Assembly (NCBI GenBank): GCA_000934665.2
Contig: JYFJ02003084.1
Location: 1-46,505 of the forward strand
Origin: Catajapyx aquilonaris
Lineage: Eukaryota
Length of the DNA: 46,505 nt
Direction of reading: 5' to 3'
Positions 3,666 to 46,505 of this stretch are shown in pieces; position 1 is the stretch's first letter, and each line of letters starts with the position of its first letter. Position numbers and translations under genes: made by a program. Below the pieces are notes generated by a model, which was given only the letters and a program-made list of their open reading frames with translations, was not told where the DNA came from and did no database searches.

Positions 3666-4144
3666 CACTAGCTTCGAAAAGTTGAGTTTTCGACGTAGTC
3701 CCCATAGCTTGTTGAGTGCAACTCTGTGTGTTCAAGGTCACACAAGCTTAGGTGAATGTAACTGACAAAGTACAGTGGAATCCTGGCTCCTATACTGTAA
3801 GCACATCGGATATAAGCAAATACTGTAGCAAGGTCGGTCCATTCATATTTCCAGCAGTGACAATGTACAGAACGCATAATTTTGGAAAAATTTGCGTTCA
3901 ACTGAAAGAAGTTGAGGTTCTAGTTCGAATCATACTACACATCCAACCTTCCATTACATTCCATCAACAACATCAATCAATTTTTGTTATTGCATTATCT
4001 TTTGAGTATGTGCTGTAGTTGTGAAGTGTGGAGATCGGATTGACTGCCAGTTATTGTTGCATGCACTTTATTCCAGTAGACTGAAGCCTATCAAGCACAA
4101 GAAGCACTGGTTGTCCAAGTATTTTGCATTAAATTGTTGTGGTG

Positions 4145-6483
4145 ATGGGTTCTGCACTTTCCTTGCCGACACTTCCTTGTGACACCAATAAGTCGGACTG
4201 TTTCGTTTGCGGTCTTTATTGCGTGCGTGAAGGAATGGTGATAGTGGGCTGCCTCACAATTGTTGATTGGCTGATTGGTGATGATGAAGAGAAGGAGGAG
4301 GAGGAGGAGGAGGAAGAAGAGGAAGAAGAAGAAGAGAAGGAGAAGGAGGGGAAAAAGGAGAAGAAAAAGCCACCTACCTATCAGTCAGAGTCCATAATGC
4401 AGTTTCCTGTACGTACTCTTCCCCCATGTTGGGATTTTCATGAGAAAGGTGGATGCAAGGCTCCGAGGTGCCGAAGGGTGCATGAAGTCAATGGGCTCAC
4501 GTAAGTAAAGCTGATGTGTAAGGAAGTTGTTTATGGAGGTTATGAAGGAATTAATATGGGGAACACAGGGTTAACCCCTTTGTGTCAGGGTCTTCCATCC
4601 ATAAGCAAAGGCTTAATGACAATTATCCCTCAGACGGTGACGTGCGAAATGTTCGCTCTCCGGTGACGTGGGCACTTTTTGTGACCAAGCCATATTTTTT
4701 GTTATATGTGGCGAAATATAGCACATTCGGGCTTCACTTTTGAGACAATCATAGTGTGATTCCTTCTACGACAAATAGCGTTTAGTTTACATTTTTTAAG
4801 GAAATAGTGCGATCAGAAAAAAATCGGAAAGAAAATCAGTCGGGGCCAACTCCCGGGGGTAGGGGGATTCCACCCCTTGGCGGCCTGGGATGCCACCGGG
4901 AGCCGCCAGACCGGATCTTGGTTAGGCCCCATCTACGCATTGCCGCCTAATTTATTTTTTCCTGGTCGTGCTAATTGCTCAAAAAATTTAAACTAAACGT
5001 GATTCATCACAGAAATAGTCAAACGAAAATGTTCTCAAAGATGAATCTCGAATGCCCTAAATTTGCCAAGTTATAGCAAAAAAGGGTCGTTGGTCACAAA
5101 AAGTGCCCACGTCACCGTCCGAGGGTTATACAAGTAGTATAATAATTATAGTAGTAGTATTTATAACTACAAGTAAATGTAGCATTTGTGAATTTGGGTG
5201 GATGTGTTGGGAAGCACTGCATTGTAAGTTTAAGATCAGTAGTGTATTCCGCAGAATGGAGATCTTACACAGAAAATTGTGATATCGATAGTGTGGCATA
5301 GCAGATGACAAACCTTTGCAACAAGGAAATTGCCTACAAACACTTAGGCTGGTATATGGTGCCCATGTAACCTAGACTGGTATGAAGTCACTTATAAAGA
5401 AAGACACTGGGTACAAAAGTACCATGTACCAATCTATGCCAAATAGTACAGTGTTGGACATAAATCGAGGCATATTGCTAGCGACATTTTCCGAAGCGGC
5501 AGAAGAAGGAATCGAAGATAAGGATACTGCAAGTCGGGCGAGCAGGATTCCTTCTTCTGCCGCTTCGGAAAATGTCGCTGGCAGTATGCCTCGATTTATG
5601 TCCATCACTGTACAGAACTAGTTCAATATTACTGTACACTTGTGCACTTACTTGTATACAGTATGCAGAAATTGCTACAAATTCTTTTAAAAAATCTTGA
5701 GCAGATGGCCTCTGACTGAGGCTGCAATTAGTGCACATTTACTGAACTTGGTGTGTATGTATCAGCCGTGTGACACTTAGAAATCATGTAAAATTTGTAG
5801 CAATATGAGGATCATATTTTTGAAATGCTCCATAAAATCTTGGTTTACTGCAATTTATTTGATTTGATAATTTTGGAAATAATAACTGTATAAACAGACC
5901 TAGGATACTGTACACGACTGTGATTTTGGAACATCTCTCTCCGTATGATGCTGTATGGTCTGAAAGTATAATTTGGAATTATTTGCGATTTTAAAAATCC
6001 AATTCTGTTCTTTGCAGAAAGTTGCGCAGCCACATCCGCTCTGCCAAGCAGACTTTGGACGTTTGCGTCTACAACGTATCTGCTTCAGACCTGCAAGATG
6101 CTGTGACAGATGCACACAAGAGAGGGGTGAAGGTGAGGGTGATTAGCGATGTCATGCGAGGAAAGTCTTCTGGTACGATTATAGAAGCATGCATAAAGTA
6201 TGGCATTCCATCAGTCTTCAAAGTGCCTGCATCACACTCAGCTGTCCATCACAAGTTCATAATTGTAGACAGGAAGGTATTGCTCTATGGTAGTCTTAAC
6301 TGGACCACAGGAGGGATATACGAGAATAGGGAGTGCCTCAGGGCCACAGACAAACAGGACGCTATTGTTCAGTTTGAAGCTGAGTTCATGCAGTTGTGGG
6401 AGAAGTTCAAGGCTTATGATGACGAATATGAGCAGGTTTTCATGTCACGTGACAAGCCTGCAAAGAGCCTGAAGCAGTCCTAA
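4145..6483 (+). CDS. zuc: Zucchini/PLD6 (MitoPLD) phospholipase D-family nuclease, ~273 aa
   Basis: Exons 4145-4500 and 6018-6483 (AC|gtaagt...ttgcag|A, phase 2). CCCH zinc motif CWDFHEKGGCKAPRCRRVH, IRSAKQTLDVCVY, RGVKVRVISD and a single HKD motif HHKFIIVD followed by GSLNWT. Start codon uncertain (4145 or 4397). Confidence 0.88.
4627..5125. mobile_element. piggyBac-like foldback MITE (499 bp) in the zuc intron
   Basis: TIRs CCCTCAGACGGTGACGTG and CACGTCACCGTCCGAGGG; TTAT on both flanks (4623-4626, 5126-5129); long imperfect internal inverted symmetry. Confidence 0.8.
5449..5610. mobile_element. Palindromic MITE with TA target duplication in the zuc intron
   Basis: TA|CAGTGTTGGACATAAATCGAGGCATA...TATGCCTCGATTTATGTCCATCACTG|TA; arms ~63 bp. 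Confidence 0.85.
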
Positions 6484-8500: not shown

Positions 8501-9144
8501 TATGGTAGAGCTCAAAATTGGTTACTTTTGATAAAAGGAAATGAACACCAATATATGGGTTTTCTAAACAGTGGATGACTATGTTTTGATGATAATTACA
8601 TATATATTGGAAACTATGTTCAAGTTGAAGAGTTCTGCTCTGGTATTAGTATAAGAAACTAGAAACAATTTATTCGGAAAGGTCCCTGTGCTAATGAGAA
8701 TATGTTCTAACATTTAAAAAAAATTATTGTATGCAGACAAATACGCAGCTAACATTTTATGTTTTCTTTATATTTTAGTTGCAGTTATTAGTGCCAACGT
8801 TTTTCTAAACTGAAAACTCCTTCCTAAGGCTGTGATTGTGGTAGAAGGTAAACAGAACTGTGATCATTCAGAGTTATATAAGTGGCTATAACAACTGATT
8901 ATAATTATAGGGATAAGTGCATAATTTTCTGTAATTTGATCATGAGAAATGAACAGTAAATACGTGTGCAATTTTGACTTGTTGTCTTATTATTAAAATC
9001 GTTTGTAATTAGTGACTTCTTCCAAACCCATCTGCTTGTTGTTGATAAACTGTTCCTGCCACCCGAGCACAACTGTTCGCTTTGGTTTTGTTACTGGCCT
9101 CCCCTTTCACATAGCCATATTATTGTTCAGCCTAAAGTGAGGCC

Positions 9145-9178
9145 AGCTGAAAGAAGTTAGTGCTAACTTCTTTCAGCT
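9145..9178. repeat. Perfect 16-bp inverted repeat with 2-nt spacer
   Basis: AGCTGAAAGAAGTTAG-TG-CTAACTTCTTTCAGCT. Confidence 0.9.
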
Positions 9179-9732
9179 AGACTCAGCCTCAGTGACCTAG
9201 CCATTAACTGTTCTATTGTTACTTGAACATGGCATGATTCCAGCTCAAACTTGTACATTGCTTAATTTTTGTAATACTGTCCAGTCTCACATCAGCAGTA
9301 TCTTTGAAATAGAGAGTTGTTTGTACAATACAAGTAGTCTTTTACTCTTTAAAATGGCTCATGAAATTCCCATGATGAAGTCGTGTCATGCAGTCTGGAA
9401 TTTATTTCAGGAAAATGTACCCTACACCCGTAATGTATTCATGACTCGTTCAAAAATACTGCTATTTTGAAACGTACTCCCAAATTGCTAGAGAGGACAC
9501 TGTAAAGCAACGAATATGACAGGTAGAGCAGTTGTTACATTTATTGCATGGTTATTAACACCAGCATCTTCAAAATAATAAATATAAATAAATTGCACAA
9601 TTCGTATAAAGGTGGTACTTCAGGAAGAACTTGTATATCCCATATTTCTTGCCGCATTCAGGAAAAGTCATTATCATTCAACTCCATCAGCCACATGGAT
9701 GTAGCTGTCAGTCAAGTCCTTTACATGATCAC

Positions 9733-10652
9733 TCATTTCTTGCCACCTGTGTATTAAAAAAGGGGATTAATTATGGCAAAACGTGAGATGTATTCATTAC
9801 GATCACACTGGGATTTGTTTTTACTTAGTTTTTACAGAGTAGGCTAAGCAGACATATAATACAACATGGGCTACCAAACAAAAGTCTGCTCATGTATTAT
9901 TATCAGGGCTGGGAATAAAAGGTGATGGGTGATGCAATGCATCTGATTGGTTTTACCAGCAACCAATTTAAAGAGAAATGACCTGTTAATTAGCACCAGT
10001 ATGTTTTTCCCCCCCTCTCGACATGCAGTAAATTAAAGTATGAGTCTTTTCTTACACACTTGAATTACTGTATGTGCCAACTACATGATGCACAATATTA
10101 CATCACTCTTGAAGGTCTCATGCTGGTTAAATTAAGTTGCAAAAATTATGACAAGATGACGAACCTTTCTTGCCGCCCCCCTTATCGCCGCCACCTTTGC
10201 CCCCCTTGTCACCACCCCCTTTGCCGCCACCCCCCTTTTTCTGAAACAAAACAGCCAACACTACATCGCCTGTGACGCGCTCAAAATATTTCGGCTGCAA
10301 GCACACACTATTTTGGTTTGGAAGGTCGACCTTGCCGGATATGTGCCAGGTTACGCAACCACCTGCATGCAATTCGGCACTAAGCTATAACCATAACTAT
10401 ATTTTGCCAATAAGTCGCGGATGTATGATCAGGAAATATTGAGGAGGGAAAAAAAGTGGCGAACTTACCTCATCTTTGCCACCACCACCGCCGCCACCAC
10501 CCTTTTCGCCTGTTGTTTAAAAAAAAAAATTATTTTAAAATGTGTGCACTAGTAATCATCAATGCACTGATATTATTTCCTTCATAATTCACCTTTTCAT
10601 ATATGTATGTTTTCTGAATAACTAGATAGCACGTACCTTTTCCCTTGGCCAT
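9733..10652 (-). CDS. Gly/Lys-rich 48-aa micropeptide encoded by four small exons
   Basis: Exons 10652-10637 (16 nt), 10509-10469 (41 nt), 10240-10165 (76 nt), 9746-9733 (14 nt); all GT-AG with phases 1,0,1 matching. Product MAKGKGEKGGGGGGGGKDEKKGGGGKGGGDKGGKGGGDKGGGKKGGKK. AATAAA on the minus strand at ~9540-9545. Confidence 0.78.
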
Positions 10653-10873
10653 AGCCGCTGAAGGTGTGTTGCTCCTCTGTGATGCTGCTGCTTCCTATCT
10701 GTTCTCCTGAAGCTATATGTACTCGAGGATTTGACAGTCTTGTTGTTGAATCCCTGCCAGTAAGCAACCTGGACCATTCCGTGTGTCTTATGCAACAGAA
10801 ACACGGGTATCTCAACGAGGAAACCGTGCCTCGAAGCAGTTGGTTGATTGGGAAGAAGCCAAAGCAACAACAT

Positions 10874-10900
10874 ACTGAGGCCATGCAGCAGTCTTATATA
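10874..10900 (-). promoter_or_regulatory. Candidate TATA box plus TCAGT initiator for the micropeptide gene
   Basis: Minus strand TATATAA (10900-10894) then TCAGT (10878-10874); spacing ~24 nt is somewhat shorter than the canonical ~30. Confidence 0.35.
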
Positions 10901-11880
10901 CGCCGTTGTAAAATACATCATGCTGTAGTTAGAATAATGGATGGTACAGTGCCAATCGAGATGTCCAGGTGCGTCATTGCAGTTATTTTATTGTACTGTT
11001 GTCGGAATTGACGTGGCGGAAACTAATGCCAGGTTTCTTCAATCTTTTATACTATTTAGAGCCATGGTAAAGAAAAAAAACACGCAGTTAAATCTAAATG
11101 TCAGAAAAATTATAGAAGTCGATTATCCTGGAAGAGAGATGACCCAAGCGCTTCTCTCGTCGTGCTGTGTTGCGGGCATGCAGGGGTAGCCTTTCTAAAT
11201 GTATGAAACAAGTGGTGCATGACATAAAATTGACGATAATAATAATAATATTTAGATCGTCTTGTTAGTAGTCACTCACGTGACACACGAGAAGTCATGA
11301 GCTCAGTAGCCTACATAATATGAAGTTTCATTTTTTCATTAACTAGAGTCTGCCATAAACAGTTGTATTAAATGTACACAATTTGTACAGTATTTATTTC
11401 ACGAATAAGTGCAGTACGGTATAATTATACATTGCAACATACAAGGTATTGTATAAAATTTAATATAAAACATTATGTTCAGTGACTATGCTGGTAGTGA
11501 GTGCTTAAAAAAAATGGAGGTCTAGATGGCCTTGGCAGAAAGGAGGAGCAATGCACGTCTGACCGAAGTGATAGGCGGAATAATGCAGTTTAGCTAACAT
11601 ATTTTTATATTCATTACAGAAGAATACTGAAATGGGAGAAATATTTTACCGGCGCGGCGTTAGAATAACTGCGTTAAGTTATTATTGTATTACACGCAAC
11701 ACGCTGAATATTACCATACGTCGTAATGTTTCATTACTATCTACTGTGGCACATGTATAAAAAATAAATATCTGAGCAAGAAATTTATTAATGTGACATA
11801 TGGCATATTGGTAAAGCATAATAGTGTAAAAGGCAACTGCATACAATTTTTGGATTTTGAAAAGTGTCAGATGCCACATG

Positions 11881-11969: not shown

Positions 11970-13237
11970 GGAGAATATTTGCGAGATTTCCGGAAATGCT
12001 CTTTGAAGTGTACTGTTTTTGTCAAATGTTAAAACTCCATCAATTATACCTGTACAAATGCTTAGCTTTTATTGACAATAATTATAATTCATTCATCACG
12101 GGTCATGTTAATACTCGACTTAATATTACTTCTGCTGTAATAACACTTTTGACTCATTTCGGAGTTATTAATATCACAAAGGCTGTATTACAATCATGCT
12201 ACAATTTAACACATCTTGCAGGTTAACTATGTGGTCCTTAACAAGTTACAATAAAGGCCTACCGTATACTCTGTGAGGTCCAATTAACTTCATCACAGCT
12301 GTCATTGCTTAACCAAGTCCAATAACAATGGTAACAATAGTGTTGTAATATTAGTACCTCATACAAATCGGAGTATATACAGTAGTTTATTACGTAACGG
12401 ACTACAAAAAATCCGAACATCGACACATATCACATAAGAGGAAAAGTTGTTTTCTGTTGTGCAATGTCCTCTCATATACTTGTAGCTTTTGTTCCAAGTT
12501 TTATAAGCACCTTTAATATAATAATATTATCTTCTGAGGCCTTATACGTGCAGACTTGAAAACCACATAACGGAAATGACATTGCAGCAATATTGCCGTC
12601 CAGGCTATAGCGCATAAATAATTAACGAGTATGCTTACGTAGTCTTACGATAGTGATCAGTCAACTCAATACAGGCGGAAGGCATTTTATTGAACATCAA
12701 TGTACTGTACGTTGCTGTGTTTGTGCAGTCATTTCTGTGGTTGTGGTAGCAACTCTCATGCTGAATCAACGCTTTTTTGAATGTGGTTTATCACACCAAG
12801 TCTGGCTTTCTCATAAACACGTTCATGCTGTACTGAATGTAACAAAAATAAATACCATACAGAAATTCAAACGAGCTTTCAAAATACCATGATAAATCTC
12901 CGCTTTGCAAAAAAAAATTAGTAATAATATGCAGCACAAAACAATGCTTTCAAAATGATTGTCATGCACTACAATAATTTTAGTCCGATTTGGTCAATAA
13001 CTGATTAATTCTTACCTAAGTCCGACGGACTTAACGAGGCTTTTAGTGAAGACGGATTTTTCAGGTATATGAATATCATTCTATACATATTATTCATCTT
13101 TTGCAAAGAATTGTCTTCAGTTTTATTAGTCTAAATAGCGAAAAATGCTATTTCCGTCGGGTCATTCGTATGGTCAAGTAATATGTATAATATTCCGCAC
13201 AATTTTGCACGATGCTGAATGCGCTGAGAAGAACCTG

Positions 13238-16200
13238 CTAGTTGTCTTCAGGAAATTTTAATCGTGGTGCTTCGACGAGTTTCTGTGGTCCAACTGTGGT
13301 CACCCCATCCCCACCTGGAGCGTAATTTGAATGTTCGATGCCAAACGACGATATGATGATGTTGAGGAGTGAAGTGATGAACACTAGCAGGAGGATGACG
13401 TCGTTAATTATGCTTGCTGCTCCTTGGTTTTTTTCTTTGTTGATATTTAAGCCTCCGATCACTATGTAAAGGATTCCGACCACAACCTGTCACATATAAA
13501 AATTGCTTGATATGAACTGGAGGAATACTTCATGACGCTGAAGGTACAGTTGCATCTTTACAAATGAATGAAATGAAATATCATTGTTGTCGGCACACCA
13601 TACGGTATTATTAGGCTACGTGTTTTTATTAGTCCCATATACAGCATGTCGTTAGTTCATCAATTATATTGTATTTTGTAGCACAGTTGCACACCGAATC
13701 ATATCACAGCCATATTTGAAATGAGATCGCAGGCAAAAAGTCATGTTTAAAAGGCATTCGAAACTTACCTAAGTATACGCATGAGTGTTTTTTTTTTTTT
13801 TGCTTCTTGCCACAGTCGCCTAAACTGCAGAAATGTTGAGCTATTACTATCCATTTATTTGGAAAATTTTGTATTGCACTATACTATAAAGCATGTGGGT
13901 AAATTACGAGATATTCTTCGCAGTAACTGCAAGCCAATGAAATTGTTTATTGACAACTTCTATGTTCTATCCCAAATCGTTTAATATCAGTGACGTATGG
14001 GTTGATAAGCTTTATAAGTGTAGAAGCTTGTCTCGCATTTTTCTTTGTAATTATCCCTGACCAAATAATATTTTATTTCTCAAAATCAAGAATATGATAC
14101 GTCACTCTTTGGGAGTTATGGCAGTTTCAAATGGTATTTAAAAAGTAGTTGATTGCACCTTGATTGCACGTGGTGTAGCCTACTAGATAATTTTAGTTTT
14201 TCTATTATATTGCAGTAAAAGTAAGACAGGTTATTTGGGCAAGTCATTTATTTGTGCTCTCATTTCTACTGAAGCTTTCTTCTGGCCTAATATTTTAAAC
14301 TGAAAACAAAATAAATTCTTGCTGCCCATAATGAACAATTTAGACGTGTCATCTACTTCCAAGGTTAGTTAACGCGTATATGTGTACTGAAACCATACAA
14401 ACATGACACATAGAGCCCAAGAAAACGAAAGCAGGAGCATGTCTGCACTATATGCTTTCTTGGATGTGTCGAGTCGCATAAACCAGATGTATAGTTAATA
14501 TTTTAAAAATTCGTCTTGCGCATAAACCAAAACGTAAATAAGTGCACATCTATTATACTGTATGTCTCACAAGCACCAAACGCACCAACTAACAGTGAGC
14601 ATCAAGTCATACAGAATGTTCATAAACATCAACCGATCGAGTAATTAGCGCCAGTCCCTCCTCTCGATAGTCGAATCCCACTCAAAGACGGACTTGAAAA
14701 TGTCGACGACCATCAGTGTGAACGTCAAGATGAGAACCACGAGATTGATGATGTCCACTGCCCTCTGCTGCGCCACAGAACCCATGTTAAGCGCCACTTG
14801 CACCACGGTGAAGATGGCCAGCAACGACTGATGGGCACCCAGCAGCCAGTCACATCAAAAGTAGTCAGCATCAGCTACAATTTTTTTTTCATCCAACTTT
14901 CTTTGGGGGGGTTAGGTAGTAAGGTCCAGGTTTGGAAGGAACAGGCTGGGATTCACTCTCTAAATTATTATTATTTTTTCATTTTTTTCTCCAATTGATA
15001 TAGAACTAATATTTGTGAGTGCTCTTTCAACTATATTCTCTTAGAACCAGTTGTATCAACTCAAATGAGAAGGAAAAGCTCTAATTATATATGTATTGTG
15101 AATATCTGCATACAACCGTTCCTAATAGCGATTTCCCTGAGAATTACATTTGACTAAAAAAACTAAAATTGCATTTTTTTATAAAAAATAAATTAATCAA
15201 TGATATTGCTTAATAAATAAATTTAGATTTATTTAATCACTTTGGAAAGGAGCAGGTGCCATTTGTAGTGTAGAAATAGTGAAAACCCACTAATTGAGCA
15301 GAATTCCACTCGTGTTGTAACAGGGCATTATATGCAATGCATGTGCAAAAGATGTGGTGAGAGAAACTCGTGTGGTCATTACATCAGGGGAAGGGGCCCC
15401 CTGAGGACGGAGACAGGGTCGAATGCGCAGATGAGGATGTTGAGGACGGAAACTAGGAAGGATGCGGAGAGTCCCACGTAGTTGAAAACCAGAGCTGACG
15501 TTTGGTAGGGTATCAAGTGCAGGCGGCAGTCCCTCAGGAAGTTCAGGGTAACGCTCAGCGTGGCCATCACCACCTATTATATACACATGCATATACACAC
15601 GGTGATGTAACAACCACAGAGTTTTCCTCACGAAACACTGCTTTCCTTTACATATACATTTACACGTCTAACTTTTAATCGAACTTGTATGATTATATTG
15701 AACAGATCACAGCTTAAAAATAGATCTACGATTGACAGAAGCCAGATCGACTTGAAGTGAAGAAAGCAAAAGAGCACGCGATGGAAAGTAGGCTATGCCA
15801 TCATGCTCGTATAGGACAGGAAGGGTTATACAGTGTGGAAGGGGCAATGCCCTTTCCAGCAGAAAGTGCGGGTCGAAGATTTAAACCTGGCTGACTTTAC
15901 TACAAACAAACAAAACCGAGACCAAGATGAAACCCAGGCAAGGTGAATGTCGAGGGTTATCATTTTTATGATAAATGGTGTCAGTCATTATAATAAAATT
16001 GGTTCATGCGTGTCTTACGTGCGTTTCGTGAAACGCGGTGCATTTAGTTCATTAACGCTGCTGTTGCTGTCAAAAAATGGGGACAACAAGACTGTGGGCA
16101 TCGATTTCCGGTTGACCACGGCGGTGTCTTGTGTTTGCCTTTGAGGTAAGGTCGTCGTCTAGGCGACCTCATTTCTTATTGGCACTCATATTGCCCACCA

Positions 16201-18427
16201 TGTATGTGACCATTGATCCGAGGTGAAAATGAACGAAGGGTGTGCAGACAACAATAGAGCTCACTTCACTTCATGCGAGGTTTAAATCTGATTACGTACC
16301 ACGTTGCATTACGATCATAATCATAATGGGAGTCAATTTCATGGTATAATTTCAGCCAATATGTAGTTGACCATTAATCGCTGCAATATTTGGTAATTAT
16401 GCATGATTGAGGTAAAAAAAAGGACTGCTACACTATTTGTCATGTTGCGTAATTATGCATCAAACTTTGTGAATAACTCTATTGATATATTGTATATTAT
16501 TAATGCTCCAAAATACCAAAAATGCAATGCAGTAAAAGAGAATATTGTTAATTAATTATAATGTAGTTAGTACGTTGTTTTTTTGCTGAAGAGGAGGTGC
16601 GCCAGGTCACAGTTAAAAGAACACAAAGCAGTAGGTGGAATTAAATAACACAGAATGAGCTCTCTGAAGGACGCAAACAGTGCGAAGAACAGACAAAAAA
16701 ATGTTTAGAATAAAAGATGATAATAATAATGGGACAAACAATATATTTGTACTAGTACTGGAGCCACAGTCAAGTGTTGTAAAAGTAATTAAAATGGTCA
16801 TCCAGATTACGATGTACTAAAAATAGTCTATGGATCCTCTCCTTTATTTTGATTTCTGTTTTGCTCGATTTGAATGTATCGTTTCCATTCTGCCTACACT
16901 TGAAATATGACCCGCTTATTTTCAGAAAATGCGGTATATTCTCACAATTGATTCACAATCAATACTGGCAATAGCTTTTTGTCGATTTGGCTAACCTTTT
17001 TTCATAAATTGGATGTGATAGGCCCTTCTACAATTTTATTGTGCATTTTTCGTCAAATAGCAGTTCCCACTCATCACCAATAAGTTAATGAGTCGAATAA
17101 AAGTAATGTCCAAAAAGGATTTCATGTGAAAGAGTGAAACATTACTCGATGTAATTTAGTGGGTATACGTTAGTATACTTTAATTTAGTCGACTTTTAGT
17201 GTACGTGACATATACTCGTATAAGCAGCTAATTCACTCCACTATCTTGAGAGTAACATAAATCGATGCAAGATCCAGTGAAGATTTTGACAACCAGGTTT
17301 AAACCTCGCCTCCTTAATAAGTACTATAATGAATTTTGATAATCGAATGATGTATAGAGTATTAAAAAATAATGACAATAATCACCTGCAGTATGATGGA
17401 AATGGAGATGAGGGAGACAAGCACTGTGTAGAACTCGTGCTTCTCTCCGACCTGGAGGACATATTTGAGTTGGCTGGCGTTGGCGGTCAGCAAGGCAATG
17501 TCCAGCATGCCCTGGGCAATGGTTTTCCTCGTGGCATACCTGTTGGCGTCCAGCCCAGGTTTGCCCTGCCAGCCCCATAGGTGAAAGGGAGAACAAAAAG
17601 ACAACTTTCAGGCCCACATTGCAACAATGCTACAAATGCACGGTGCAAATTTTGTTGCGATTTTTTTCGTCCAACACATCGAATTTATTTATTTTGAAAA
17701 CGTTTGATCTATATGCAGCTGTGCTATGCAGAGAGTCAATGAGTCATCCCCGCTAAAAGGTTAGAGGTACCTGGTATCACACCATTGTCTGGTAGAATTT
17801 ACGTAACGGCCGTCTCCTAGGCGAGTGCCATCGATCAATTTCCTTGTAATATTTACCACCTGCCATTAGCTTCGACCATTTTCATAGGAATTGCTATTTG
17901 CTAGTCGATACGGATGGTACGAACCTCAAACTGTAGTACTAATATTGAAAGCATTTTTCTTATTGAACAATAACTTCTTGTGACATGCGTGATAATGTAC
18001 GGTATATATCTACAAAGCAATTAGGCTACTCCAGCAGCCACCAGAAGGGTTTTTCATTGCAGGTTTATTGTGACTTCATTACCCAAGTTCTGATACTGTA
18101 TACTACCAATGAATAGGTCATTATCAAAACCAGGATATCTCATGTTGTCAAAAGCGTGTTAATACCTGGTTACAGGAAGCAACTCGACGCTAAATTCATA
18201 TTTCAAATAATATGGAAAATTTTCACATTGGATTCACCTCCCATTGGGCAAAGTCACTTTGAGCGTGAAAAGACTTAGTTAATCTGAATTACCTGTTTTC
18301 TGAAGGATTCGTACGGATAATGAGTTAATGACTATACTCAAATAAATGTTGGGCGATTTTCAATTGAGCACAAATTGTGTTAAATACATACCACTCTTCC
18401 ATCGTCAGGAGATATTGACGTCATCAT
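13238..18427 (-). CDS. NijC: Ninjurin (NijC-like) gene: common exons plus distal terminal exon 3d
   Basis: Exon 1 18427-18392 (MMTSISPDDGRV, less certain); exon 2 17565-17386 (DANRYATRKTIAQGMLDIALLTANASQLKYVL...ISISIILQ, ninjurin signature); phase-0 splice to 13486-13238 (VVVGILYIVIGGLNINK...INDVILLLVFITSLLNIIISSFG). Confidence 0.88.
14645..14827 (-). CDS. Ninjurin alternative terminal exon 3c (absent from the ORF track)
   Basis: catcag| phase 0; SLLAIFTVVQVALNMGSVAQQRAVDIINLVVLILTFTLMVVDIFKSVFEWDSTIERRDWR*; two hydrophobic segments homologous to exon 3d. Confidence 0.8.
   Translation of the reverse strand, partial: SLLAIFTVVQVALNMGSVAQQRAVDIINLVVLILTFTLMVVDIFKSVFEWDSTIERRDWR
15379..15573 (-). 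CDS. Ninjurin alternative terminal exon 3b
   Basis: aatag| phase 0; VVMATLSVTLNFLRDCRLH...FNYVGLSASFLVSVLNILICAFD...*; minus-strand AATAAA at ~15228. Confidence 0.82.
   Translation of the reverse strand: MVMATLSVTLNFLRDCRLHLIPYQTSALVFNYVGLSASFLVSVLNILICAFDPVSVLRGPLPLM
16613..16816 (-). CDS. Candidate divergent ninjurin alternative terminal exon 3a
   Basis: ctatttttag| phase 0; YIVIWMTILITFTTLDCGSSTSTNILFVPLLLSSFILNIFLSVL...*; keeps the N-x13-N spacing of the other three exons. Confidence 0.55.
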   Translation of the reverse strand, partial: YIVIWMTILITFTTLDCGSSTSTNILFVPLLLSSFILNIFLSVLRTVCVLQRAHSVLFNSTYCFVFF

Positions 18428-25625: not shown

Positions 25626-26560
25626 TCATGGCCAATCTGCTCGGAGTTCCTCCAAGAACAGTACCACAAACAATGCCACACCATTGAGAATCATGGTCAC
25701 CAAGTTCATATCGAGAGAGCGCTTAGCTGAGATCTTGATGCGAGAGGGTGAGCACGGAGATGGTGGGACCCTGCCAGGTACTGCACTGTCCATGAAAAGG
25801 ATGAGGGCTGAGAAGAGGGAGAGGGCAGCTCCTGAGAAGGCAGGCATCAAAAACCACCTTCCTTTGGCCCATACTTTGGAGGCCAGCTCGGACACCTGGT
25901 TAGCTGACCCAAGCACAGCATGAGCAACTAGACCAAGGGATGGATAGGCCTCCGTGACATTTGACGCCAGTGAAGCCACCCACTCAGAGCCCCAATAAAC
26001 TGGCTGGAACATGACAGCTGTGTGCAGAAAGGATTACTTGTAGTAATTGAGGTCAGTCATGCAGTGTATGAGAAAAACAATTATGATGTACTTCTAGGAA
26101 TAACCATTAGTAGCAAATGCACTATTCAGCCATATTTAAAGAAAGCAAAACATTTATTTTTGAAAAATCCATACTTTTGATTGTTGTCACCTATGATTGA
26201 TATGGCAATTCTTGTTGTAACCAAGATGCTAAATTATAACCTGGTCAGTTAAACCGGCCATTATCCAAACAATCAATGCTTACTCCAATCGTAGAAATGA
26301 CTGAGGATGAAGACGGCTGCAAATAACCCGAAGATCGAAGCCTTATTGGACATGTAAGGTTCTTGCACAAAAACGCAATCAAGTGTACGAATCCTCCGCA
26401 CTGGCACTCGTGCATCATCCGAGTCGCTGTTGTCAGACTGCACATCCCCATTCTCAGCGGTGGTACTGCTCCAGGAAAATTCACTCGACGCCCGCTGCTC
26501 AGGGCTTGCAACGTAGTGCAATTGCCTATTAATTGCTTGATATGGCATCATTCTGGCCAT
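25626..26560 (-). CDS. ARL6IP6: ARL6IP6-like membrane protein, ~222 aa
   Basis: Exons 26560-26284 and 26017-25626 (phase 1). C-terminal DSAVPGRVPPSPCSP...ILNG matches the recalled ARL6IP6 motif DSxxPGxxPPxPxSP...AILNG; three hydrophobic segments. Confidence 0.82.
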
Positions 26561-26568
26561 ATGCCACC

Positions 26569-26627
<59 letters not shown>

Positions 26628-26660
26628 GACTACTACTACTATTATTAGTAGTAGTAGTAG

Positions 26661-26695
<35 letters not shown>
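26569..26695. repeat. Compound trinucleotide microsatellite (AAT)n(ACT)n(ATT)(AGT)n(GAT)n
   Basis: Read directly from the sequence. Confidence 0.95.
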
Positions 26696-27257
26696 CAATT
26701 TAGAGTCTGCCTGGTCTGCCTATGATTGATCCTCTTATAATTCCGAACACAAAGGTCATTGACCTGACCGTGGACCTGACCTTGTCTTGTTCTCAGCAGA
26801 TATGCCCTCTTTTTTTGGCAGGTGGTCAAGCACTGTGCGGGTCACTCTCGGTTAGGCAAGTACGGGTGCGCCTGGACCGCCTGGACTGAAATAGGGCCCG
26901 AGATGGCAGATTGGCAGCCGAAGACGAGAGGGGAAAATTTTGAATCTTCGTTCCTCTTCGGCCCTTGTGCAACTAATCAGGGTTGCCAACATTCGAATGC
27001 GACCAGTGCGACACATCAGGAAACAATATTTTACTCATTTCCTGTAAAACAATATTGGTGTTTAGAGCTCATATACATTTTCATATGCATTTAAATTTAA
27101 ATATATGTTTATTAAATTGTAATTGGGTACATTGCAGCGTATATGAAGACAAAACGTTATTTGCAAAATAGCTGCGATCACTCGCAAGATAGCGGCGATT
27201 TGAGAGTAGCGACTATTTGTCACCGTGACGTGATTTGAGTCCACTAGGTATTTAAAG

Positions 27258-41400: not shown

Positions 41401-41880
41401 TGTCAAAGTCTTTATTCGCAATTACGCTAGGCGTGTTCAGAATTCATCAACCCTATCGTCTTTGTTTGCAGATTGTTTGTTATTGTGACAAGGCTGTACA
41501 CCTGTAAGTACTGTAGGCTACTGCATAATACAGGCGGATACCCAGGTTTCCTAGCCTTAGAAAAACTCTCTCCCAGTCGTTTTATTAATAAATATATCCT
41601 GCACTAAAATGCCAAAACAATGCCTTTTTCTACCTTCGTTGCAGTCTATTCTCATAAGTAAGCAGGCACTGCTCAGGAGCATAAAATGACCCCCATCAAT
41701 TAGTATTGAGCCGCAGCTTATTCCATATTTGCCTATTCTGCAGCCTGAACCTAATATGAAATTTATTTTGTGGCATGTCAGTAGTAAATATTGATTATTA
41801 TCAATATAATATAGCCTTCGTATGGGTAATGTACAGAAATAACGCCAAGGTATTCTGTATGACTGAGGTAACTTCTCCAT

Positions 41881-41883
<3 letters not shown>

Positions 41884-41950
<67 letters not shown>
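41884..41950. repeat. (AAT)n microsatellite
   Basis: Read directly from the sequence. Confidence 0.95.
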
Positions 41951-44900
41951 TTGCCATTAGTAAAAACACATGGAACTTGCACCACTAACTAGAATAGGCA
42001 TGGTGTTATGTCTATACAGTAGCTCTTAGCTGTGCAGTACAGAAGCAATGCCTTGCTGTTTTCATTCAAGTGAAGACAAAGGAATCTAAAGACAATGCAT
42101 AATAACCATAAAGGGTTGGACAAGGGTGGAGGAAGGTGACTGAAGTCATACACTACCTTTGGATGTGCCACCTAGAGTTAGTAAGTTTAGTTGGAGTACG
42201 CCTGCGCAGTGAAGTAGCCTAACTGGAATACCCCTAGGCTAGTTTTCTCCTTCACCGGTGCAGGTGTATTTCTAATTCCAACTACTACTGAACCTACTAC
42301 CAATGAAAAATAGTAAAAACTGTACAAGCAGCTACTGGTGCTGGTCCAGGGCACCCAAAAGTAACACACACTGAACTTCAGAACTGCCAATTGAAGGTTA
42401 AAACCTGCATCAACATAATATGAGGAACACTTTCCTCCACAGTATTATAAGTACATATCAAAAATATTCCCATAATGACCATAAAACCTAAAAGTAAACT
42501 GGCCCAATGCGTCAAGGTACTCACTTGTTTCCAGTAAATGAACCCTACTTGAGCAAAAGGAGCTGATGCAATAAAATGTCCATTTTGAGATTTCCCAGCC
42601 TGCATTCCCAATAACATTAACACACACTGACTTAGCATGGGAAATAGCAACTGCAAACAATTCAAACTGCTCAGTTGCTACATCAACAGCTGTCACAATC
42701 CGGACAAAAATAAAGATGTCATTTCAGTTCTGCTGCAAACATGGTTAGCCAATATTCATATGCAAATGATTGCTTCATATGCTAACCAGTTGCACATGAT
42801 AAGCTGGTAGATTATTACACACTGTAACATGGGGCAGAGAATCCCAATTCTATAAATGTAATTCCATGATGATTCAAAAAGCTTTAGCAAGCTGCAAGGA
42901 CAGCCAATAGGTTGGGCAACTCTATGATTACCAAGTGAAGGAGGGACTCATGCAATTATAAAGTATTCTTGGCTGCCAAAAGGTCCACAGGGTCAGATAC
43001 CATTATTTAACTCCTGTCCTTTCAGCCTTCTCTACCTTACTCTCGGTTTCTCTTAATCTATCTGTCTATCACATTACAGCCCGGTAGCTACATGGCTTTT
43101 TCCATTCAATTAATCAGTCAACCTGTTATGTGAATCTTGGTGCTGTGTGGCTCTATGAATTAACCTACCTTGAAATGATTGGTTGCTGTTCTTGCTAAAG
43201 CTGCTACAAACAGAATTTGGCACCCCAAAACGATTCCTATTACTTACAAGCTCTCAGAAAGACTTCAAATCCGTGCAATTAAATTATCAATTAGGTTGTT
43301 AATGAAGGTTTTTATTTTCGTTAATGAGAGCTATAAAGTATTACAGGTCAATTCTCCGCAAGGTAATTGAAACAAAGGTTCTAAAAAACCTGATACACCT
43401 GTCCCACTGATTGGCAGGACACTTCAAGACTGTCTTGCTTTTATTGCTAATTTGCATTTGCAATCAAGTTGCAACCAACCCAAAAACAATTCATTGCCTT
43501 TCTGCTACCAATTCCTTATTGTCTGTCAGTAAACACCATCAATGTACATACAATTTTATTGTCACTCATTTCCAACACTAACCTAGTGCTCATTCATATC
43601 AGCAAACCAACACTCACCAGTGCTGCACCTTGCATTTATGAGTCATAAGTCATAACACATTCCACCCCAGTGTAGTGGCAAGCAAAACACAAAAGAACAT
43701 ATGTGAGTTCTGGCTCAACATATGGCAGCATTACATGCCACAATATTTCCTCTGAAAGGGTGAAACCCGATGGCTGAACCATTCATCACCATTGGCCAGA
43801 CCAATCCCCCAAGCTCTCAAGGATCCATCCAACAAATAACTTACTCTTTGAATGTGCAAGTGCTGCAATTAACTCTTATGATGAAACCACATCACCAAGT
43901 ACGATGCTTTTCGAGTTCATTTTTCACTAGCTATTCCTTTATAAATTGCCATCATTTAATTTTATATGTACCTGATGATGAGGTTCTGTGGTAATGTTAG
44001 CTTATGAAATCAGCTTAAGAGTATGTTAGGCCATGGTCACACGTGCAACAAAACTTACAGGACATTATAACAGACAATCTGCGACACCCCTGGACAAATC
44101 TCATGTTGCAAAAGCCATGTTCCTAGTCATTAAATGCATGGGGCTCGATGGTGGCCAAAATAATTGTTATACCTTTGGGAGACTCGTTACAAGCACTTGT
44201 ATGTTAGTGAAGACTGCTGCTGTCACATTTATATTGTCGCTAGCTCTGGATTATTGCTGCACATATGACAAGGGCAAAAACTTTCCTACTCTACCCTTGC
44301 AATGTACGTAACTGAACATATGCAACAATCGCTACGACTCTTTTTGTCTATATATTACTTCCCAATTCCAATTTCACAACCACAGGTACGTAGGTGCACC
44401 AGCACATATCATCACCCAACGGAAGGCCTTCTAGTTAATAGACACCCATCCTGCAGCAATGCATGTTCCAAATGGTGTCTCCCACCAGGAATTGACTGAT
44501 TTAGTGACCAGCATTGCTATTATGCATCATGCACAACAATGCTGGTCACAATATGCATGAAACTATAGAATGTTACTGATATGACCATTCTTATAGAGTT
44601 GACATAGTTGGCCATTGTGACTGTCTGCATGCGCAATTCTTTGATAAAAATCCTCCAAGTCCTACCTTACTTGACGGCACGTGCTGACTGGCAGGTGTGC
44701 GTCTCCCAACCCTGTGATTATATGTATTATCAAGGTCGGTATATGGACAGCTGATTCCCGTGTGAGCGAGTCCTCCCGGCTCCAACCGTGTCCTGGGACG
44801 GTCTGGCTGGCTGGAGAAAAAAACTTCACAGGCCGGAAAGGAAGAGACTTCAATGGTGAAGTGTTGGTTAATCGTCCGGAACTGTTCTTCGGGTGGCTGA

Positions 44901-45394
44901 CCGACCCTCCCCCTCCAGCTTTCTCTCGCAGCTCTCGATTGACCTCTTCGTCTTGTTGGATTCTAATAAGCAGTCTCATCCGATTTCTTTTTCTTGTGCT
45001 CCTTTTTTTCCCCCCGCCCCTCACGTTCTTTTTTACCGTCCTTTTAATGCGACTTAACCAGTCGAACACCCAATGTGATTTTATCAAGGTCAATTCCTGG
45101 TGGTTCATTTCGTGGTCGAGAGGTGGCGTAAGTGGGCTCCAATCTGCAATGGGGTTAATGCGAAAGGAAGACGACAGATGGGATGGTTGCGTACAATGCC
45201 AATATTTTGCTTGATGGTGGCACCACCTGGCGAGGATCAGTGTTACTATGCGGATATACCGCGTGATCCAAATGATCCAAATGATTTCATTCCTTGAAGC
45301 AAATAACTTTGAAAATTGATATACCGGTATTTGCATTTTTTTGGTTCATAAAATATTGCAACGTTGCTTTTAGTCCGGGTGCTAAGGGGTTGAA

Positions 45395-46505
45395 CTTCGC
45401 ATTTTGTGACAAAAGTATGAAACTCGGTACACTTGTCCTTTGGACACTTCTGATCATATCTGGACGTGGAGCCACGATGACCCACCCCGGTGGTGGTCCA
45501 TTTCGCAGGGTTTCCATAACTACCAGATGCAGCATCCTTTTAGGACCTTGTATTGGGTGACAAAAACATGAAACTCTCCACAATTGGTCATTGGACACTT
45601 CTGAACATGTCTGGATGTGGAGCCACGATGACTGACCCCGCTGTGGGTCACTTGCAGGGTTGCCAGATCTAACGGACCAAACATACATCTCTGCGAGGAT
45701 CATGTGAATTGGGAGCTTGCATTCGGTGATAAAAACGTGAAACGCGGTACGGTAGTTCTTCGAACACATCTCAACATATCTGGACGTGGGGTCACGGTGG
45801 GTGACCCGTGGTGGCCTCGCCAGGGGTCACTATCGCGGAGTTGCCAAATCGAACATGTGTTGCACACCTTTACATGAATAAGGGCCTTGCATTCGGTGAT
45901 AAAACACTGCTAAAACATGAAACTCGCCCCAATTGGTCTTCGGACACTACTGAACATGTCTGGAAGTGAGGTCACTATGGATGACCCCGCTGGGGGTCAC
46001 TCGCAGGGTTGCCAGATCTAATGGGCTCTCTAAGTAAACTATGTGAATAGGGAGCTTGCATTCGGTGACGAAGACGTGAAACTCGGTACAATATAGTTCT
46101 TTGCACACTTCCGAACATATCTGGACGTGGGGCCACGATGACCCACCCCGGTGGAGGGCACTATCTGGCACTATGATGGTGTTGCCAAATCTAACAGACT
46201 GTGCAACATGCGTTTATATTTTGATAGGGAGCTTGCATTTGGTGACAAAGACGTGAAACTTGGTAGAATTGTTCTTTGGACACTTCCGAACATATCTGGA
46301 CTTGGAGCTACGATGACCCACCCCGAGGGAGGGCACTATCGCAAGGTTGCCATATCTAACAGAATGTGCAACATGTGTTTCTATTTGAATAATGAGCTTG
46401 CATTCGGTGACAAAGCCATAAAACTTGGTACGTTAGTTCTTTGGACACTTCCGAACATATCTGGACGTGGGGCCACGATGACCCACCCCGAGGGAGGGCA
46501 CTATC
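45395..46505. repeat. Diverged tandem array, unit ~165-178 bp, about 6.5 units, running off the window
   Basis: GCATTCGGTGA...TGAAACTCGGTAC...GGACACTTCCGAACATATCTGGACGTGGGGCCACGATGACCCACCCCG recurs near 45399, 45550, 45719, 45889, 46058, 46236 and 46400. Confidence 0.92.

Follow-up and report, generated by a model that had tools for sequence, protein, structure and literature searches.

The locus described here raises the question of whether a chain of very small exons rich in glycine and lysine codons is a gene, or whether it is repetitive DNA that happens to be flanked by splice-like signals. The chain lies at positions 9733-10652 on the minus strand of contig JYFJ02003084.1 from Catajapyx aquilonaris (assembly GCA_000934665.2). 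We analyzed positions 1 to 46,505 of this contig, and this whole stretch of 46,505 nucleotides (nt) is called the window throughout. An earlier interpretation made from the DNA letters and their open reading frames (the sequence-only reading) had assembled four exons into a micropeptide of 48 amino acids (aa), regarded as a real, disordered cationic microprotein that annotation would probably miss. Our own reading, which we hold tentatively as possible though short of probable, is a real, lineage-restricted and independent microgene with two ends, one giving a soluble protein of 48 aa and the other a CaaX-bearing, lipid-anchored protein of 56 aa. If real, the locus would be a clean case of a coding microgene missed by standard annotation, with coding pieces of 14-76 nt and a low-complexity product of the kind that search tools filter out.

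Four Small Coding Pieces Join in Phase

The observation of a four-piece Gly/Lys chain was confirmed: on the minus strand, the pieces lie where the sequence-only reading had placed them and join in matching phases via GT-AG introns into 147 nt, or 48 codons. The first coding piece (10637-10652, 16 nt) encodes MAKGK plus one nucleotide. Its ATG stands in the context gcggctATGG, with G at both -3 and +4, and the piece ends at the donor aag/GTACGT. Intron 1 (10510-10636) has 127 nt with a GC content of 0.26 and carries a T-rich tract followed by cag at its acceptor. The second piece (10469-10509, 41 nt) contains eight consecutive Gly codons of the GGT/GGC type and ends at the donor gag/GTAAGT. Intron 2 (10241-10468) measures 228 nt, a multiple of three, and its acceptor preceding the third piece reads gttttgtttcag. 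The third piece (10165-10240, 76 nt) is built of two 24-nt units, each encoding KGGGDKGG, and ends at the weak donor aag/GTTCGT. The 418-nt intron 3 (9747-10164), which may be either removed or retained, has the acceptor ccccttttttaatacacag. The fourth piece (9733-9746, 14 nt) completes a Gly codon and adds GKK and TGA. The GC content of the introns (127, 228, and 418 nt) is 0.26-0.45, as opposed to 0.43-0.64 for the exons.

The product reproduced from the joined coordinates has 27 Gly, 14 Lys, 3 Asp, 2 Glu, 1 Met, and 1 Ala residues, with a pI of 10.1, a charge of +8.5 at pH 7, and a grand average of hydropathy (GRAVY) of -1.65. It contains no hydrophobic residue beyond Met1 and Ala2, and only Gly, Lys, Glu, and Asp follow MAKGK. 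Lacking a hydrophobic stretch, the protein has no signal peptide, as the sequence-only reading had noted. The in-frame stop that it had placed before the ATG is also present, as TAG at 10697-10695, 15 codons upstream.

The Signals of the Locus Stand Out From the Window

Since nearly any DNA would allow tiny exons to be strung together into 48 codons, we compared every element of the model with the window itself. The splice sites were scored with a crude custom consensus count against the 5450 GT and 5393 AG sites of the window. Of the GT sites, 0.7% score at least as high as donors 1 and 2, and 4% at least as high as donor 3, the weakest of the three, which is off consensus at +3 and +4. Among the AG sites, 2.7% reach or surpass the score of acceptors 1 and 3, and 23% that of acceptor 2. 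Across all six frames of the 46.5 kb, only two stretches contain at least 10 Gly or Lys residues out of 12. These two are exons 2 and 3, which reside on one strand in compatible phases, separated by the 228-nt intron.

The two tiny end exons carry on the Gly/Lys composition in the phase needed. Within 2.5 kb downstream of exon 3, a fair pyrimidine tract precedes 54 AG sites, among which the acceptor at 9746 has the joint top score. It alone yields a multi-residue, all-Gly/Lys end in the required phase, namely GGKK followed by a stop. According to a rough estimate assuming uniform composition, the chance of such an end is about 1.5e-5 per site and about 1e-3 across the 54 sites. At the other end, 20 GT sites scoring at least 4 occur within 2.5 kb upstream of exon 2, and 7 of the 20 are preceded by a frame with an in-phase ATG. 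The donor nearest to exon 2, which is also the joint best of the 20, gives MAKGK.

Both the candidate promoter elements and the poly(A) signal reported in the sequence-only reading proved to be present. The TATA-like box TATATAAG (10893-10900, minus strand) is one of 18 TATAWAWR sites on both strands of the window and the sole one followed by a TCAKT initiator at a distance of 24-33 nt. This initiator-like (Inr) element, TCAGT at 10874-10878 on the same strand, lies 24 nt downstream of the TATA-like box and offers the A at 10876 as a candidate start site. The pair, located about 225 nt upstream of the ATG, is thus the only TATA plus Inr pair in the window and has the correct orientation. From position 10876, a putative 5' leader of 224 nt (10653-10876) would precede the coding sequence. 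A candidate poly(A) signal, AATAAA at 9545-9540, follows the stop codon after 188 nt. When scanned, the 1 kb upstream contained no heat shock element (HSE), kappa-B, cAMP response element (CRE), AP-1, or FoxO sites, and hence no stress or immune elements of these kinds. The coincidence of signals at the locus is not what random sequence gives.

Repeat Origin and the Constrained Frame

The coding sequence is repeat-derived. Tandem Repeats Finder (TRF) scored exon 2 as (CCA)7.7, which is microsatellite-like, and exon 3 as 2.1 copies of a 24-nt unit (period 24). The Gly codons comprise 12 GGC, 10 GGT, 4 GGG, and 1 GGA. GGA thus makes up 1 of 27 Gly codons, compared with 33% in eight conserved open reading frame (ORF) pieces of the window, some of which include intron flanks (chi-square p = 0.0014). 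Such atypical Gly codon use is more in keeping with a young repeat than with a tuned gene. The sequence-only reading had taken the mixed Gly codons as an argument against a simple microsatellite. All four codons do occur, but with GGC or GGT at 22 of the 27 positions and repeat-derived exons, that argument holds only weakly.

These observations lead to a reading in which nothing is translated: a GGY microsatellite and a 24-nt minisatellite would lie in intergenic DNA or within a non-coding RNA, and the surrounding signals would be fortuitous or would serve the non-coding transcript. In addition to the repeat structure and the codon use, the upstream ATGs described below, which disfavor the proposed start, and the failure to find a homologue or family would agree with it. 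So would the risk of over-fitting inherent in a model drawn by eye from very small exons. Other features are at odds with it, because two donors of the top 0.7% sit exactly at the ends of the Gly/Lys blocks, the tiny end exons extend the composition in phase, and the unique TATA plus Inr pair is found on the correct strand. We consider it doubtful that the locus is untranslated. If it were indeed unexpressed, the locus would be a useful caution that strong splice-like signals can flank repeat tracts.

The differences between the two 24-nt units of exon 3 also argue for translation. The units differ at four nucleotides, all four of which are third-position, synonymous changes, so that both units encode KGGGDKGG. 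With 8 third positions among the 24, the probability of all four differences occurring at such positions is C(8,4)/C(24,4) = 70/10626 = 0.0066. Judged from this pattern, the Gly/Lys frame is supported as the constrained frame. The synonymous differences are the sole internal evidence for purifying selection, and this evidence is small, although it is independent of how the model was built. In the microgene that we tentatively propose, the coding sequence would have grown out of the GGY and 24-nt repeats; if real, it would show a repeat tract becoming a constrained coding sequence.

The same four differences bear on a competing frame. Upstream of the proposed start, ATGs occur at 10884, 10873, and 10777, none of which appears in the sequence-only reading's account. 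Those at 10873 and 10777 lie within the putative leader and open the +1 frame, which overlaps the main start, stays open through all four exons, and stops just past the main stop. The ATG at 10777 has a strong context with G at -3 and G at +4. Ribosomes scanning a leader that begins at 10876 would reach 10873 and 10777 first, which weighs against initiation at the proposed ATG. Translation from 10777 (or 10873) would yield a product of about 90-125 aa rich in Arg, Lys, Val, and Ala, with the Gly/Lys frame as a by-product. However, all four unit differences would alter residues in the +1 frame, and its openness is automatic in a sequence of GGN and AAR codons. Moreover, its unspliced upstream part has no Pfam match, and the start site that places 10777 ahead of the main ATG is itself a candidate. 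A +1-frame product is very unlikely to be what the locus encodes.

An Alternative End Carries a CaaX-Type Tail

The weak third donor also leaves room for a second end, which the sequence-only reading had not taken into account. If intron 3 is kept, the frame runs for 12 more codons to a total of 56 aa. This continuation (10127-10164, minus strand), together with the last base of the third piece, reads GSSSCHNFCNLI and ends at TAA (10129-10127). The resulting C-terminus, FCNLI, places a Cys fourth from the end, a Cys that the spliced 48-aa form does not have. The 56-aa form has a GRAVY of -1.21. In CNLI, Leu at a2 and Ile at X agree with what a CaaX box requires, whereas Asn at a1 is non-canonical. 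In the passages concerned, a study with a Ydj1 reporter in humanized yeast describes CNLI as a substrate for human FTase and GGTase-I and classes it as non-canonical (PMC11152559). According to the relevant part of a review, geranylgeranylation is directed by Leu, Ile, or Phe at X, and the second membrane signal comes from a polybasic domain or palmitoylation (PMC9141697). In the 56-aa form, both possible kinds of second signal can be found, as 14 Lys residues precede the tail and another Cys lies four residues before the CaaX Cys.

To estimate how often such endings arise by chance, we took all frames of the window that end in a stop and have at least 10 codons, 2652 in number. A Cys at -4 occurs in 116 of them; 55 (2.1%) end in C-x-[LIVMFAT]-x and 19 (0.72%) in C-x-[LIV]-[LFIMVSQAC]. 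Three points weigh against a functional tail. The ending was spotted post hoc among many possible tails, so these chance values have to be discounted several-fold. Asn at a1 is not the canonical residue. The lysines are also diluted by Gly and 5 acidic residues, and the KK closest to the tail precedes its first Cys by 5-6 residues.

Should CNLI be a coincidence, the model of the sequence-only reading would stand as it was, with a single four-exon mRNA and the soluble 48-aa peptide as the only product. The borders and phases of all three introns fit this model, as do the joint-best acceptor at 9746 and the GGKK plus stop that it yields in the correct phase, and the synonymous pattern supports the Gly/Lys frame in either case. 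CaaX-type endings in 0.7-2% of the window frames would suffice for a chance match when any motif is free to be noticed. Nevertheless, the donor that this mRNA depends on is the weakest of the three, the public reads described below contain no joined form, and the read-through tail unites an experimentally prenylated tetrapeptide, a polybasic run, and an extra Cys. We regard a single soluble product as rather doubtful. Because both ends, GGKK and CNLI, look non-random, the simplest account free of coincidence is that both are used, which is why we propose a microgene with two ends.

Public Reads Cover the Locus in Unspliced Form

One public sequencing run (X1), the kind of which is unrecorded, contains the locus, with 0.43 of the sampled words present; no RNA run was listed as containing it. 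It yields two contigs, 9563-10181 and 10267-10455, which include no exon joints. The parts 9300-9562, 10182-10266, and 10456-10950 have no cover, from which we draw no inference. The 619-nt contig is the window sequence over 9563-10181 and spans the border of exon 3 and intron 3, the whole of intron 3, and exon 4, all unspliced. It extends 170 nt past the stop and ends 18 nt before AATAAA. The 189-nt contig lies inside intron 2 (10267-10455). If the run is RNA, the unspliced contig means retention of intron 3; if it is DNA, it says nothing on splicing. The lack of any spliced or joined form among these contigs counts against the proposed microgene.

The mean word depths of the two contigs, which are 86 nt apart, are 73 and 4.3, a 17-fold gap. 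An RNA run in which the last intron is kept, a repeat at this place, or a library of the peak type could each produce such a gap. Since parts of a gene cannot be ranked by contig depth, we did not use the gap as evidence.

Searches for Relatives

For the homology and family searches, the queries were the contiguous 40-aa stretch encoded at 10130-10249 on the minus strand (exon 3 and the read-through tail) or residues 1-25 of P0001. These searches are insensitive to Gly/Lys low complexity, and composition filters suppress such matches. For the exon-3 stretch, none of the 97 candidates (22-70 aa) from a word-index search reached E <= 10, and phmmer found 0 matches among 1.84 billion representatives. 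The ESM Atlas gave no usable match. In Pfam, 0 families matched this 40-aa stretch at E <= 10, including SERF/4F5, TMA7, and the KGG-repeat stress proteins. These results, from searches weak for such queries, count against the proposed microgene. Within the window, BLAST of 9300-10950 against the whole sequence revealed no second copy and aligned only exon 2 with exon 3. The plus-strand ORFs across the locus gave no Pfam match and nothing protein-like. Among the papers that we searched, none described a Gly/Lys-rich micropeptide, the 8-residue unit had no text match, and none joined the terms microprotein, CaaX, and prenylated; a looser search returned general prenylation papers only.

The claim of a real cationic microprotein thus stands in part. 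The gene-like anatomy and the constrained Gly/Lys frame agree with it, whereas no relative or family was found with these queries and no joined form occurs among the contigs of the public run.

A Possible Soluble and Membrane-Anchored Pair

In the two-ended microgene that we tentatively propose, the product would be a flexible Gly/Lys polycation without fixed structure (pI about 10, charge about +8.5) that binds acidic surfaces electrostatically. The first three pieces would be those of the sequence-only reading, and the end of the gene would probably be alternative. Use of the weak last donor would give the soluble 48-aa form ending in GGKK, which might associate with RNA, DNA, ribosomes, or other polyanions. 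Retention of the last intron would give the 56-aa form ending in GSSSCHNFCNLI, in which CNLI could be prenylated as a CaaX box, presumably with a geranylgeranyl group in view of the Ile at X. The 14 lysines and the second Cys four residues upstream could supply the second membrane signal. This form might then be held at the inner face of acidic membranes, in the manner of a K-Ras4B- or Rac-type tail standing on its own or of a MARCKS-like, lipid-anchored basic protein.

Taken to its full extent, the idea is a free-standing membrane anchor of about 56 aa, combining Gly-spaced polylysine with a prenylated CaaX box, recently born from repeats and toggled to a soluble 48-aa form by a weak donor. 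We consider this complete picture unlikely. If true, a protein lacking any folded domain could adjust how charged the surface of the inner leaflet is or how available its acidic lipids are. Among the roles suggested in the sequence-only reading, chromatin packaging, a lysine-methylation substrate, and an intracellular antimicrobial peptide found no specific support in our analysis.

Genomic Neighborhood

The candidate is located between a Ninjurin gene, upstream on the same strand, and a PLD6-like gene, downstream on the other strand. The N-terminal Ninjurin exon (17362-17607, minus strand) matches Pfam with an E-value of 4e-27. Two alternative C-terminal exons, 14645-14854 (weak) and 13238-13489, also on the minus strand, each match the profile over its C-terminal half, which may reflect either a partial duplication or last exons used in a mutually exclusive way.

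This arrangement raises the possibility that the four pieces belong to a longer gene such as Ninjurin, as alternative 3' exons or as its tail; according to the sequence-only reading, the latter finding would have spoken against its model. The Ninjurin exons share the strand, the gene already has two alternative last exons, and a cag stands 5 nt before the proposed ATG. Yet both last exons of Ninjurin end in stops and AATAAA follows at 13127. The candidate starts more than 2 kb beyond the end of Ninjurin with its own promoter-like signals, the TATA plus Inr pair. The tract upstream of the cag is purine-rich (judged by eye), and the in-frame TAG precedes the ATG by 15 codons. On this evidence, the locus is independent of Ninjurin, and we regard a longer gene as highly improbable.

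The PLD6/Zucchini-like exon (5995-6483, plus strand) matches PLDc_2 with an E-value of 6e-26, and its relatives are at most 42% identical. In the best of these relatives, the PLD domain is preceded by CCCH zinc fingers. An ORF upstream of the exon (4133-4504, plus strand) contains a Glu-rich run and a Cys/His-rich stretch and has no zf-CCCH match. Farther away, the window holds a UBE3C orthologue (about 20.2-24.7 kb), with an exon up to 74% identical to insect proteins, and an aldehyde dehydrogenase gene (about 29.4-31.1 kb). A Harbinger/PIF-type transposase ORF of 326 aa is found at 1089-2069 on the minus strand (DDE_Tnp_4, E-value 5e-18).

Rfam over 9000-11500 gave nothing beyond a weak mir-8536 match to a palindromic hairpin at 9129-9195, with 25.7 and 20.1 bits on the two strands compared with a gathering score of 100; the hairpin is probably a chance inverted repeat. 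At the end of the window, 45246-46504 has open frames on both strands that share the peptide pattern ...KLG..VLWTL..ISG.GATMTHP.GG..., which points to a repeat or mobile element present in tandem copies. Long microsatellites of the AAT/ATT type at 26273-26841 and 41557-41988 translate in open frames into poly-Ile or poly-Asn, and a single N occurs near 32.98 kb.

Comparison With Known Systems

Very high Gly content and net positive charge are shared with the Gly-rich cationic antimicrobial peptides of arthropods, such as acanthoscurrin, armadillidin, and the ctenidins. Unlike the candidate, which has no hydrophobic stretch, these peptides are secreted from signal-peptide precursors, and they use His, Arg, or Tyr.

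SERF/4F5, TMA7, and RPL41 are small, Lys-rich, disordered proteins encoded in tiny exons. The candidate resembles them in having fewer than 70 aa, a very basic character, no fold, and very short exons, and its action would likewise probably be electrostatic binding of polyanions. Those proteins, however, are not Gly-rich and have housekeeping promoters, whereas the candidate has a TATA plus Inr pair and its exon-3 stretch is without a Pfam match.

By composition, the 48-aa product also falls among the hydrophilins, which the passage at hand of PMC11277543 defines as a physico-chemical class with more than 6% Gly and a hydrophilicity index above 1.0. With 56% Gly (27/48) and a GRAVY of -1.65, it is a small protein without a hydrophobic core that has the properties of this class. 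Hydrophilins are, however, a class by composition and not by descent, and no HSE or stress-type elements were found upstream of the candidate.

The closest parallels to the proposed 56-aa form are drawn from membrane tails that combine a polybasic stretch with a CaaX box, known from the small GTPases K-Ras4B, Rac1, and Rap1, and from the lipid-anchored, disordered basic proteins MARCKS, GAP43, and BASP1. Like the polybasic-CaaX tails, the 56-aa form has a C-terminal C-a-a-X sequence (X = Ile), upstream lysines, and a nearby extra Cys, without a folded domain. The candidate has neither a GTPase nor any other domain, so that the whole protein would be tail, and its lysines are spaced by Gly rather than clustered. 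In contrast to the MARCKS-type proteins, its anchor would be a prenyl and not a myristoyl group. Its CaaX end, unlike the established tails, exists only when the last intron is retained. If it proves true, the 56-aa form would be a domain-less, prenylated, polybasic microprotein and a minimal natural model for membrane targeting by electrostatics and a lipid together.

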